A stretch of DNA of 64,000 nt, taken from the NCBI RefSeq assembly GCF_022846255.1, contig NZ_AP025682.1; one strand, 5' to 3'. Positions 49,629 to 53,239 of this stretch are shown piece after piece; within the stretch, counting starts at the first letter, position 1; each line of letters starts with the position of its first letter. The notes under the pieces are model-generated. The model saw nothing but the letters and a program-made list of their open reading frames with translations. It made no database searches and had not been told where the DNA came from. Made by a program: the position numbers and the translations under genes. This DNA is from Escherichia coli (GTDB lineage: Bacteria; Pseudomonadota; Gammaproteobacteria; Enterobacterales; Enterobacteriaceae).

Positions 49629-49817
49629 AGCGCAAATATTCCCTTGCACAAAACAAAGTGGTAAGTATGCAAATTGAGATGGCGCAATTCATTGATGCAG
49701 CGCAGTTAAGCAAGATAATCAGAAAGGATTAATGCAAATTAAGAGAATAAAAAACCGGAAATAGTGACTATTTCCGGTTCAGATATCCGCAGCGTAAAGC
49801 TGCGGATGATGACGAGA

Positions 49818-51962
49818 TTACTGCTGCTGTGCAGACTGAATCGCAGTCAGCGCGATGGTGTAGACGATATCGTCAACCAGTGCGCCACGGGACAGGTCGT
49901 TAACCGGCTTGCGCATACCCTGCAGCATCGGTCCGATAGAGATCAGGTCAGCAGAACGCTGTACCGCTTTGTAGGTGGTGTTACCGGTGTTCAGATCCGG
50001 GAAGATGAACACGGTAGCGCGACCTGCAACCGGAGAGTTCGGTGCTTTGGATTTCGCAACGTCAGCCATTACCGCAGCGTCGTACTGCAGCGGACCGTCG
50101 ATCATCAGGTCAGGACGTTTTTCCTGCGCCAGACGAGTTGCTTCGCGAACTTTTTCTACGTCGCTACCAGCACCAGAAGTCCCGGTGGAGTAGGAGAGCA
50201 TAGCAACGCGCGGTTCGATACCGAAGGCCGCAGCGGAATCTGCGGACTGAATCGCGATTTCTGCCAGCTGTTCTGCGGTCGGATCCGGGTTGATCGCACA
50301 GTCACCGTAAACGTAAACCTGTTCCGGCAGCAGCATGAAGAACACGGAAGATACCAGGGAGCTGCCCGGTGCAGTTTTGATCAGCTGCAGCGGCGGACGG
50401 ATGGTGTTTGCGGTAGTGTGAACAGCACCGGAAACCAGACCATCAACTTCATCCTGTTCCAGCATCAGCGTACCGAGAACCACGTTGTCTTCCAGCTGTT
50501 CGCGGGCAACGGTTTCGGTCATGCCTTTGTTCTTACGCAGTTCGACCAGACGACCAACATAGCTTTCGCGAACCACTTCTGGATCAACGATTTCAATGCC
50601 TGCACCCAGTTCTACACCCTGAGACGCTGCAACACGGTTGATCTCTGCCGGATTACCCAGCAGTACGCAAGTTGCGATACCACGTTCAGCACAGATAGCG
50701 GCTGCCTTAACGGTACGCGGTTCGTCACCTTCCGGCAGAACGATACGTTTGCCCGCTTTGCGCGCAAGTTCAGTCAGCTGATAACGGAACGCCGGCGGAG
50801 ACAGACGACGGCTGCGCTCAGAAGTGGCCGTCAGAGAATCGATCCAGTCAGCGTTGATGTAGTTAGCAACGTATTCCTGAACTTTCTCGATACGCTCGTG
50901 ATCGTCAACCGGAACTTCCAGGTTGAAGCTCTGCAGGCTCAGAGAAGTCTGCCAGGTGTTGGTGTTCACCATAAATACCGGCAGGCCTGTAGCGAAAGCA
51001 CGTTCGCACAGTTTAGAAATGCGCGCGTCCATTTCGTAGCCGCCAGTCAGCAGCAGGGCACCGATTTCTACGCCGTTCATGGCAGCCAGGCACGCGGCAA
51101 CCAGCACGTCAGGACGGTCTGCGGAAGTCACCAGCAGAGAACCGGCACGGAAGTGCTCCAGCATGTGTGGAATGCTGCGTGCGCAGAAAGTGACGGATTT
51201 AACGCGGCGAGTATTGATGTCGCCTTCGTTGATGATGGTCGCATTCAGGTGGCGAGCCATATCGATCGCACGAGTCGCGATCAGGTCAAAGCTCCACGGC
51301 ACCGCGCCGAGAACCGGCAGCGGGCTGGATTCTTGCAGCTTCGCCGGATCAACATTGTTTACTTTAGCTTTGGAAGAGTCGTCGAAAATCTCGGACAGAT
51401 CCGGGCGAGTACGACCCTGTTCATCAACCGGTGCGTTCAGTTTGTTAACGATAACGCCGGTGATGTTGGTGTTTTTGGCACCGCCGAAGCTGTTGCGGGT
51501 CAGTTCGATACGCTCTTTCAGCTGTTCCGGGGTGTCAGTGCCCTGAGACATAACGAAGACGATTTCCGCATTCAGCGTTTTAGCGATTTCGTAGTTCAGA
51601 GACTGGGCAAACTGGTGTTTACGTGTCGGGACCAGACCTTCAACCAGAACGACTTCAGCGTCTTTGGTGTTAGCGTGGTAGTTCGCGATGATCTCTTCCA
51701 TCAGCACATCTTTCTGATTGCTGGAAAGCAGACCTTCAACGTAGCTCATTTTCAGCGGTTCAGCGGCCGTCGTGGTGGAAGAGTTCGCACGCACGATAGT
51801 CGTAGTCTGATCGGGCGCATCGCCACCGGTACGCGGCTGAGCGATAGGTTTGAAAACGCTCAGACGAACGCCTTTGCGTTCCATTGCACGGATCACGCCA
51901 AGGCTGACGCTGGTCAGACCGACGCTGGTTCCGGTAGGGATCAGCATAATAATACGGGACAC
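49818..51962 (-). CDS. pta: Phosphate acetyltransferase
   Basis: 714 aa, [31 protein letters not shown]..., full-length Pta with N-terminal regulatory and C-terminal catalytic domains. Confidence 0.95.
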
Positions 51963-52008
51963 GGTTTATCCTCTTTCGTTACCGCCGATTTGGCGGGTTA
52001 CAAAACAG

Positions 52009-52031
52009 CACCGCCAGCTGAGCTGGCGGTG
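52009..52031 (-). other. Perfect 10-bp palindrome in the ackA-pta intergenic region
   Basis: CACCGCCAGC - TGA - GCTGGCGGTG immediately downstream of the ackA stop; on the transcribed strand it is followed by CUGUUUUGU. Possible partial terminator or processing site. Confidence 0.45.
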
Positions 52032-52036
52032 TGAAA

Positions 52037-53239
52037 TCAGGCAGTCAGGCGGCTCGCGTCTTGCGCGATAACCAGTTCTTCGTTGGTTGGGATAACCACC
52101 GCAGGACGGGTACCTTCTTTGTTGATGAAACCAGATTTGCCGAAACGTGCAGCCAGGTTGCGTTCATGATCAACTTCAAAGCCCAGCACGCCCAGTTTGC
52201 CCAGAGACAGTTCACGAACCATCGCGGCATTTTCACCGATACCACCGGTGAATACAACAGCGTCCAGACGACCATCCATCAGCGCAGTGTAGGCACCGAT
52301 GTATTTGGCCAGGCGGTGGCAGTAAACGTCCATTGCGCGCTTCGCGTCTTCTTTCGTCGCGTAGTTGTCTTCAACATAGCGGCAGTCGCTGGTCACTTCG
52401 GTCAGACCCAGCAGGCCAGACTCTTTGGTCAGCAGTTTGTTGATTGCGTCAACGCTCATGCCCAGGGTGTCGTGCAGGTGGAAGATGATCGCCGGATCGA
52501 TATCACCAGAACGGGTACCCATGACCAGACCTTCCAGCGGGGTCAGGCCCATAGAGGTGTCAACGCATTTACCGTTGCGGATAGCAGAAACGGAACCACC
52601 GTTGCCCAGGTGGCAGGTGATGATGTTCAGTTCTTCTACCGGTTTGTTCAGCATTTTTGCCGCTTCCTGGGTTACATAGAAGTGGCTGGTGCCGTGCGCG
52701 CCGTAACGACGGATGCCGTGCTCTTTGTACAGGTTGTACGGCAGGGCGTAGAGGTAAGACTCTTCCGGCATAGTCTGGTGGAACGCGGTGTCAAATACAG
52801 CAACGTTTTTGTCTTTCAGCTGTGGGAAAGATTTCAGAGCTTCTTCGATACCGATCAGGTGAGCCGGGTTGTGCAGCGGTGCAAAAGAAGCTGCATCTTT
52901 GATACCCTGAATAACAGACTCATCGATCACTACGGAGCTGGTATACTTTTCGCCGCCGTGTACGATACGGTGACCGATAGCGGTCAGCTGCGCAGACAGT
53001 TCTGGTTTTTGTGCCAGAATAGTATTAACGATAAAGTTGAGCGCTTCGCTGTGAGCGGCGCCTGCACCTAAAGCCGCTTCCTGTTTATTGCCGTCCATTT
53101 TCCATTTGATACGTGCTTCGGGCAGGTGGAAACATTCGGCTAAACCAGAAAGGTACTCTTCACCATTTACTGCATCGATGATTGCAAATTTCAGTGAAGA
53201 ACTACCGCAGTTCAGAACCAGTACTAACTTACTCGACAT
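52037..53239 (-). CDS. ackA: Acetate kinase
   Basis: 400 aa, [23 protein letters not shown]... Confidence 0.95.

Follow-up and report, generated by a model that had tools for sequence, protein, structure and literature searches.

The question raised by this locus is what kind of element separates two cistrons whose products, AckA and Pta, act back to back and by their balance set the level of acetyl-phosphate, which donates phosphoryl and acetyl groups globally, with effects on two-component signalling and on the acetylation of proteins. The locus is the E. coli ackA-pta operon, located on the minus strand of the window, the whole 64-kb stretch of DNA analysed here. A first-pass annotation had reported a perfect 10-bp palindrome at 52009-52031, between the two genes, and had proposed that it could be a leaky terminator or a processing or stability element. 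The sequence and a repeat search confirm the palindrome as described. The proposal holds as regards the kind of element, given a position kept in 69 of 79 species, compensatory and G-U changes and canonical terminator scores in four other orders, while the leakiness is inferred. Comparative sequence evidence indicates that the RNA form of this palindrome, hereafter hairpin 1, is real and has been under selection, as an element of the intrinsic-terminator type on the sense strand between the two genes. Elements of this kind are ordinary and well known, and nothing about hairpin 1 challenges current understanding. The explanation that we favor, with moderate confidence, is that hairpin 1 acts as a leaky intercistronic terminator that would also protect the 3' end of the ackA mRNA.

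Hairpin 1 and its place in the ackA-pta spacer

The ackA coding sequence (400 aa; 52037..53239, minus strand), identified from the ORF list and from the RefSeq annotation of identical DNA in O157:H7 and K-12, ends with a UGA stop at 52039..52037. The pta coding sequence (714 aa; 49818..51962, minus strand; ORF list and RefSeq annotation) begins with a GTG codon at 51962..51960, a start that the first-pass annotation had proposed, that agrees with the RefSeq annotation and that is conserved at this position in Enterobacterales, Aeromonas, and Photobacterium. Between the two genes lies a 74-nt spacer (51963..52036, minus strand). Its downstream end contains the pta ribosome-binding site AGAGGA (51974..51969), which together with the GUG start (51960..51974 as a whole, minus strand) is supported by sequence, annotation, and conservation, the combination of AAGAGG and GTG being kept across Enterobacterales. 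Read in the direction of transcription, the junction runs UGA(ackA stop)-UUUCA-CACCGCCAGC-UCA-GCUGGCGGUG-CUGUUUUGU-AAC-CCGCC-AAAUC-GGCGG-UAACGAA-AGAGGA-UAAACC-GUG(pta). In K-12 MG1655, ackA ends at 2,414,672 and pta starts at 2,414,747 (MG1655 position = 2,414,672 + (52037 - window coordinate)), and the annotation of that genome lists no RNA, ncRNA, repeat, binding, or regulatory feature between ackA and pta. A 241-nt query around the site has one match each in 5424 of 5426 complete E. coli genomes, with at least 99% identity in 5405, and the matches are annotated as ackA and pta. One further E. coli genome that was inspected harbors identical hairpins.

At the DNA level, the repeat search returned two arms of 11 nt (52009-52019 and 52021-52031) that are 100% complementary and 1 nt apart. 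As RNA, the segment (52009..52031, minus strand) forms a perfect 10-bp stem with eight G-C pairs and a 3-nt loop, composed of the 5' arm CACCGCCAGC (52031..52022), the loop UCA (52021..52019), and the 3' arm GCUGGCGGUG (52018..52009). The stem had been described as beginning immediately after the ackA stop, but a 5-nt spacer, UUUCA (52036..52032, minus strand), lies between the UGA and the stem. Likewise, the "TGA" that had been written between the arms is the loop as it appears on the plus strand and not a stop codon, the transcript reading CACCGCCAGC-UCA-GCUGGCGGUG. The U-containing stretch reported 3' of the stem on the transcribed strand was correctly identified and corresponds to the interrupted U-tract CUGUUUUGU (52008..52000, minus strand). 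The first-pass annotation had overlooked the minus-strand orientation of the genes and a second conserved hairpin (51996..51982).

Hairpin 1 has a free energy of about -18.9 kcal/mol and a core pair probability of 0.99. The 37-nt region that contains it reaches -20.1 kcal/mol (z = -4.96), with none of 200 shuffles folding as well, and the whole 74-nt spacer folds at -36.5 kcal/mol (z = -3.98). In addition, weak pairing across a bulged C is possible between the spacer residues C(-2) and A(-1) on one side and U(+2) and G(+3) on the other; these extension pairs (A-U and C-G) belong to the MFE structure of the 37-nt fragment and have a probability of 0.2 in the full spacer.

The 64-kb window contains 10 perfect stems of at least 10 bp whose loops do not exceed 8 nt, compared with 0.5 in Markov shuffles, so that the chance of encountering such a stem in a given 74-nt spacer is below 1e-3; the remaining stems of this class lie mostly at gene ends. 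No second copy of the hairpin 1 sequence occurs in the window, even when up to 3 mismatches are allowed. A terminator-pattern scan flags both the hairpin 1 site and the terminator that follows pta, but its matches are not enriched over the region (4 versus 6.0 +/- 2.7 in shuffles), and the scan is therefore no evidence in its own right. The significance of hairpin 1 rests on stem length and conservation. Searches of Rfam with both strands of the spacer at a permissive E-value gave best scores of 15-17 bits against thresholds of 39-43 (E 1.9-5.8); the sub-threshold matches, to NsiR1, sucA, and P9, were rejected as chance hits, and an Rfam scan of 10 related loci likewise returned no family match.

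Conservation and terminator strength across Gammaproteobacteria

One genome per species was scanned with AckA, which yielded 80 loci ranging from Escherichia to Shewanella, and the spacer of each locus, bounded by the ackA stop and the pta start, was extracted. Hairpins of -8 kcal/mol or lower that lie within 30 nt of the ackA stop and have at least four U among the 8 nt after them are present in 69 of 79 gammaproteobacterial species and in 0.5% of dinucleotide shuffles. Hairpins of -16 kcal/mol or lower after the ackA stop are found in 51 of the 79 species and in no shuffles. The species with a hairpin span Escherichia, Vibrio, Pasteurellaceae, Aeromonas, and Shewanella; it is absent in Yersinia thracica, Rosenbergiella, a Photodesmus symbiont, and some Shewanella relatives. 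The position is the same throughout, and the stem sequences are unrelated between lineages, with CACCGCCAGC in Escherichia, CCCCGCAGGCC in Hafnia, CCGUCAGC/GCUGACGG in Pantoea, AAGGCCGCCC in Aeromonas, AAACUGCCGA in Pasteurellaceae, AAACCGCC in Gilliamella, and stems that differ again in Vibrio, Photobacterium, and Shewanella. The distance from the ackA stop to the stem, 5 nt in E. coli, ranges from 5 to 21 nt (median 8) in all 73 species with a hairpin, and the distance from the stem to the pta start is 26-36 nt in Pasteurellales, Aeromonas, and Orbales and 62-125 nt in Vibrionales.

When 29 Enterobacterales are aligned, pairing is kept in 87.8% of the cells, and both sides have changed in 10 of the 13 pairs; none of 500 shuffles reaches any of these measures, and a slid 3' partner is only 25-58% paired. 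One stem pair occurs as C-G (17), U-G (7), and U-A (5). Because U-G pairs form only in the sense RNA, the antisense equivalent being A-C, selection acts on the ackA-sense RNA and not on the DNA or an antisense transcript, and the compensatory changes as a whole point to RNA-level selection on the sense strand. Compensatory changes are also present in 7 of 11 pairs among seven Vibrio spacers. Across 21 Enterobacteriaceae genera, both arms and the motif UGUUUU (YUGUUUU) are invariant and the loop is hypervariable in sequence and length, with a pairwise identity of only 0.72 at the synonymous sites of ackA in the same genomes.

Terminator strength was scored with a discriminant d of the d'Aubenton-Carafa type, in which the energy of the hairpin per nucleotide and a position-weighted U score are taken together. 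The operon-end intrinsic terminator after pta (49752..49780, minus strand), a 13-bp stem followed by UUUUUUAUUC, served as an internal yardstick and scores d = +26.4 with a U score (T-score) of 5.04; other gene-end hairpins in the window range from +9 to +36. The 10-bp form of E. coli hairpin 1 falls below the classical threshold, at d = -7.4 with a U score of 1.66, owing to the C at +1 and the G at +3 of CUGUUUUGU, a tract with only four consecutive U and 5 U in its first 8 nt. In intrinsic terminators, the U run is typically 7-9 nt long and its first positions are U. Scoring without bulges understates E. coli hairpin 1, however: in the bulged 12-bp form, which is marginal, the two-pair extension (A-U and C-G across the bulged C) puts UUUUGU directly after the helix, and rescoring gives d = +12.7.

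Among the other lineages, d is positive in all eight Pasteurellales, 10 of 12 Vibrionales, all three Aeromonas, all three Orbales, 12 of 26 other Enterobacterales, and 5 of 21 Enterobacteriaceae. Yersinia, Pectobacterium, and Brenneria encode a 13-bp stem (CAA...UUG) with UUUUU directly after it. Judged from these sequences, hairpin 1 looks like an ancestral canonical terminator whose U-tract has been weakened in the Escherichia lineage.

Predicted read-through into pta, the second hairpin, and competing explanations

A pta promoter is said to have been placed inside ackA by Kakuda et al. in 1994. The two genes are described as an operon in which pta uses the ackA promoter and also a promoter of its own (PMC7047895, PMC5670510). 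Codons 262-280 of ackA, which show high synonymous conservation, were considered as an internal pta promoter and rejected, as their conservation looks like codon bias (CTG, ACC, AAA) and no convincing -35/-10 elements were seen. A scan for sigma-70-like promoters on the minus strand between 49000 and 54500 returned none, and hence none between hairpin 1 and pta, where hairpin 2 and the ribosome-binding site fill the 37 nt that separate the U-tract from the pta start. As no promoter-like site lies between them, all pta transcription would have to cross hairpin 1, and because read-through into pta would then be obligatory, hairpin 1 should be leaky. We infer this leakiness from the weakened U-tract, the 5-nt distance from the stop codon, and the lack of a promoter-like site before pta. 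The same read-through logic applies with greater force in Pasteurellales, Aeromonas, and Orbales, in which canonical terminators stand 26-36 nt from the pta start.

Proximity to the stop codon bears on how often termination might occur. In a reporter study by Li et al., the lambda tR2 terminator was almost fully repressed when placed 8-9 bp after a stop codon, because the ribosome blocks folding of the hairpin, and an efficiency of about 0.9 was attained only beyond 30 bp (PMC4824070). By analogy, the position of hairpin 1 predicts translation-sensitive termination, and since a distance of 5 nt predicts strong repression on translated transcripts, net termination may be very small. The proximity itself is not anomalous, since natural terminators are mostly found no more than 50 bp from a stop codon (PMC4824070).

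In the mechanism that we favor, hairpin 1 of E. coli would be a weak, partial terminator that descends from one already present between the two genes in a gammaproteobacterial ancestor. Some RNA polymerases would release in CUGUUUUGU and yield an ackA-only mRNA, on which the hairpin would then shield the 3' end from 3'-to-5' exonucleases, and the remaining polymerases would read through into pta. Read-through would be favored by the interrupted U-tract and by the 5-nt distance from the stop, at which a terminating ribosome would cover the 5' arm. The spacer as a whole, with hairpin 1 followed by hairpin 2 before the pta ribosome-binding site, may uncouple the amounts and fates of the ackA and pta segments. 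Termination in E. coli, its efficiency, the protection of the 3' end, and an effect on the AckA:Pta ratio are all predicted on this basis.

Hairpin 2 (51982..51996, minus strand), identified by folding and conservation, consists of CCGCC (51996..51992), the loop AAAUC, and GGCGG (51986..51982). It has a free energy of -9.2 kcal/mol (z = -2.68) and ends 7 nt upstream of the pta Shine-Dalgarno sequence. A structure-anchored analysis of each sequence, used for these counts in place of MAFFT pair counts, which are unreliable as the alignment is out of register, found hairpin 2 in 21 of 21 Enterobacteriaceae genera, with 9 different stems, free loops, and energies from -5.7 to -10.3 kcal/mol; the stems include CCGUC/GACGG, GUGAGCA/UGCUCGC, GCGCC/GGCGC, GCCAG/CUGGC, and GCGCCUG/CAGGUGC. 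Hairpins of -6 kcal/mol or lower are present here in 95% of Enterobacteriaceae genera compared with 9% of shuffles. Hairpin 2 is missing from most lineages outside Enterobacteriaceae that keep hairpin 1. As it has no U-tail, it is not a second terminator. Together, hairpins 1 and 2 flank the unpaired, U-rich linker UGUUUUGUAAC. Two hairpins around an unpaired linker are the classic layout for endonucleolytic separation of cistrons, in which the 3' hairpin protects the upstream piece and the 5' hairpin the downstream piece. By its resemblance to this layout, the ackA-pta spacer may be a cistron-separation arrangement. RNase E cleaves at the motif RN|WUU, and GU|UUU within CUGUUUUGU fits this motif as a putative cleavage site.

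In the curated Term-seq tables of Adams et al. 2021, no 3' end is given at MG1655 2,414,5xx-2,414,7xx and no entry is named ackA or pta; near the end of pta, the tables show only a Rho region at 2,416,989. The strong pta terminator near 2,416,960 is equally missing from these tables, so their silence on hairpin 1 is weak evidence. The TIER-seq supplement, whose tables may use locus tags, has no entry named ackA or pta, the SMRT-Cappable-seq and TERMITe supplements have no entry for either gene, and the literature searched yielded no northern-blot evidence for or against an ackA-only transcript. As for expression, the ackA-pta locus is itself an SdhX target. SdhX represses AckA and not Pta, an example of discoordinate regulation (PMC6393394, PMC9438474), and the absence of a significant change in Pta when SdhX represses ackA translation is reported as data not shown (PMC6393394). 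In addition, deletion of ackA lowers Pta activity to 62%, and deletion of pta lowers AckA activity to 69% (PMC2731896).

The main alternative scenario, possible though on the unlikely side, is purely post-transcriptional. In E. coli, polymerase would read through essentially always, RNase E would cut the linker, hairpin 1 would be only a 3' exonuclease barrier that stabilizes ackA, and hairpin 2 would protect the 5' end of pta, so that differential decay and not transcription would separate the two messages. The two stable hairpins around the unpaired UGUUUUGUAAC and the fit of GU|UUU to RN|WUU are consistent with this scenario, as is the retention of hairpin 2 as a structure, through 9 stems in 21 of 21 Enterobacteriaceae genera, for which a plain terminator would have no need. 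The weakened U-tract of E. coli and a stop distance that predicts little termination point in the same direction, as do the absence of a called termination 3' end at hairpin 1 in Adams et al. 2021 and the observation that SdhX-triggered repression of ackA does not spread to pta. However, full-length U-tracts and canonical scores occur in four other orders, and an exonuclease barrier needs neither; UGUUUU is invariant in Enterobacteriaceae; and, outside this family, most lineages with hairpin 1 have no hairpin 2. The TIER-seq supplement, with no ackA- or pta-named entry, also speaks against this scenario, weakly in view of the possible use of locus tags. A further and distinctly doubtful possibility is that a competent terminator is masked by the ribosome finishing ackA, in which case ackA translation would license transcription of pta from the ackA promoter and untranslated transcripts would be cut short. 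The stop-to-stem distance of 5-21 nt (median 8) in all 73 species with a hairpin is in keeping with such gating, terminators this near a stop codon are repressed by ribosomes in experiments (PMC4824070), and Pasteurellales, Aeromonas, and Orbales, with canonical U-tracts 26-36 nt from the pta start, must still express pta. Proximity alone is not unusual, however, as most natural terminators lie within 50 bp of the stop (PMC4824070), and Pta does not change significantly when SdhX represses the translation of ackA, whereas strong gating would predict the opposite.

Hairpin 1 and its U-tail could also serve as the 3' part by which a regulatory RNA derived from the ackA 3' end binds Hfq or ProQ, which we consider very improbable. 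In sRNAs derived from 3' UTRs, Hfq generically binds a terminator stem-loop and its U-tail (PMC9438474), and SdhX, CpxQ, and SroC likewise carry a terminator-like hairpin and U-tail at the end of a metabolic gene. Unlike these sRNAs, the 3' end of ackA has no conserved upstream seed, a very short 3' UTR, a weak U-tail, and no Rfam family. Identity at synonymous sites is 0.52-0.70 over the final 12-20 codons of ackA, at or below the gene average (means 0.64-0.72), and reveals no conserved seed; the 3' UTR comprises just the stem and the 5 nt before it, the U-tail is both short and interrupted, no Rfam match was obtained, and no ncRNA is annotated here in K-12. An sRNA seed or a nearby promoter at the ackA 3' end was accordingly rejected, the synonymous sites being unconstrained and the minus-strand promoter scan empty. 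Finally, a perfect DNA palindrome near the pta start invites a DNA-level reading, whether as an operator or recombination site, as one copy of a repeated element (REP, for example), or as a functionless chance palindrome; taken together, these are hardly credible. The loop, which would be the spacer of a DNA site, varies from 3 to 7 nt and is free to change in sequence, and G-U wobbles and wholly different stems preserve RNA pairing and not DNA sequence. A transcription-factor operator was rejected on the basis of this variable spacer of 3-7 nt together with compensatory and G-U changes in the half-sites. Membership in REP/BIME or any other repeat family was rejected on the basis of the single copy per genome, in 5424 E. 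coli genomes, and of uniqueness in the window, and K-12 has no annotated repeat or binding feature at the site. A chance palindrome would be expected at less than 1e-3, and the hairpin is kept in 69 of 79 species.

Relation to known elements and possible significance

Hairpin 1 resembles intrinsic terminators such as lambda tR2 and the pta terminator in its GC-rich perfect stem, short loop, and U-rich tail, and, like them, it lies on the sense strand just after a stop codon and is kept in structure but not in sequence. Unlike canonical terminators, it is situated inside an operon, where the downstream gene depends on read-through, and in E. coli its U-tract is interrupted and only 5 nt separate it from the stop codon. 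The rplL-rpoB and rpsU-dnaG-rpoD operons are the textbook cases of intra-operon partial terminators or attenuators that set stoichiometry. Hairpin 1 shares with these a terminator-type hairpin between two cistrons of one operon, and ackA-pta also resembles such operons in having an extra promoter for the downstream gene (pta, PMC5670510) and discoordinate expression (SdhX).

Classic intercistronic hairpins that stabilize mRNA and give the segments of a message different stabilities include the malE-malF REP, the Rhodobacter puf operon, and papB-papA. The ackA-pta spacer is similar to these in its stem-loop at the upstream 3' end, its single-stranded A/U-rich linker, and its second hairpin before the downstream cistron. 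Unlike the malE-malF REP, hairpin 1 is not a REP, being single-copy and unannotated, and the likeness is one of architecture.

The SdhX literature indicates that cells regulate ackA separately from pta, deliberately, and a conserved terminator or stabilizer hairpin is a plausible fixed part of this uncoupling. A more speculative and rather unlikely extension is that the whole spacer is a two-hairpin "insulator valve", comprising a ribosome-gated terminator, a U-rich linker open to cleavage, and a hairpin at the 5' end of the pta segment, such that pta output would depend on the translation status of ackA and the fates of the two halves of the message would be separated. If true, it would provide a structural basis for discoordinate control of AckA and Pta, for example by SdhX, and hence for the setting of the acetyl-phosphate pool. 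The element appears to be ancient across Gammaproteobacteria, with a weakened U-tract and an added second hairpin in Enterobacteriaceae, and the comparison may be a useful worked example of how an internal terminator evolves. Hairpin 1 could also offer metabolic engineers a simple handle for tuning acetate overflow. An engineered BL21 derivative in which the whole spacer has been replaced by a foreign promoter cassette is viable, and hairpin 1 is therefore dispensable for viability.

A second conserved stem-loop upstream of pta

The ackA-pta spacer contains, in addition to the terminator-type hairpin that follows the ackA stop codon (hairpin 1), a second stem-loop, CCGCC-AAAUC-GGCGG (hairpin 2; 51982-51996, minus strand), located directly upstream of the pta Shine-Dalgarno sequence. 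The structure of hairpin 2 is retained in all 21 Enterobacteriaceae genera compared, in which it is built from nine different stem sequences. The same 5-mers, CCGCC/GGCGG, that make up its arms are also found at the core of hairpin 1. The two hairpins of Siccibacter likewise have a sequence in common, in this case GCCAG/CUGGC. These common sequences may reflect alternative pairing or an origin by duplication.

Hairpin 2 is absent in Yersinia, Brenneria, Photorhabdus, Pectobacterium, and Acerihabitans (ackA-pta loci L020, L029, L030, L034, L037, L040, and L044), which have in common a conserved unstructured block, UUGACUAACGAGCAACCGUAAAGAGG. This block follows the terminator and precedes the ribosome-binding site of pta, at a distance of ~35 nt from the pta start. 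In Vibrio spacers, the terminator is followed by a second element that is also conserved (L056 2715-2770, L062 2760-2820, and L082 2765-2815), with the sequence GGGGCUYAACUCCUAUUCC ... GGAAUARGYARUUGRGCUUUUAU, which forms a long imperfect inverted repeat ending in a U-run. This element had no Rfam match and was not called by RNAalifold.

Natural and engineered loss of spacer elements

Hairpin 1 has been lost entirely in Yersinia thracica (L023) and Rosenbergiella (L047 and L078), in which the ackA-pta spacers are just 41-42 nt long. These genomes constitute natural 'deletion mutants' that can be compared with their sister species. In E. coli BL21 NZ_CP170101.1 (L084 1605-1837), a cassette of ~230 bp, annotated as a partial integrase, takes the place of the entire native spacer. 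The cassette resembles a class 1 integron/aacC1 promoter region, and NZ_CP170101.1 is evidently an engineered strain in which a foreign promoter drives pta.

Synonymous conservation and antisense reading frames

Across Enterobacteriaceae, synonymous-site conservation in ackA codons 262-280 (52400-52456, minus strand) reaches 0.91-0.98, compared with a mean of 0.72. Inspection of this segment as a candidate internal pta promoter revealed no clear -35/-10 elements, and its conservation looks more like the outcome of strong codon bias (CTG, ACC, AAA). Synonymous sites in ackA codons 1-5 (53225-53239, minus strand) are invariant across the family, consistent with the published pairing site of SdhX, an sRNA repressing AckA but not Pta, together with the translation-initiation region.

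Very long antisense shadow ORFs occur on the plus strand opposite both pta (756 aa, 49764-52034) and ackA (346 aa, 52031-53071), and are probably artefacts of codon-biased genes. The TGA that ends the 756-aa frame overlaps the base of hairpin 1.

Tandem hairpins at the pta 3' end

Folding placed tandem hairpins at the pta 3' end on the minus strand (49785-49807 and 49752-49780). The first, directly past the pta stop, has a 9-bp stem without a U-tract, and the second is a canonical terminator comprising a 13-bp stem and UUUUUUAUUC. Folded jointly, they yield -32.9 kcal/mol (z = -9.2). A Rho-dependent termination region (MG1655 2,416,989) lies ~30 nt downstream of these hairpins (Adams et al.).
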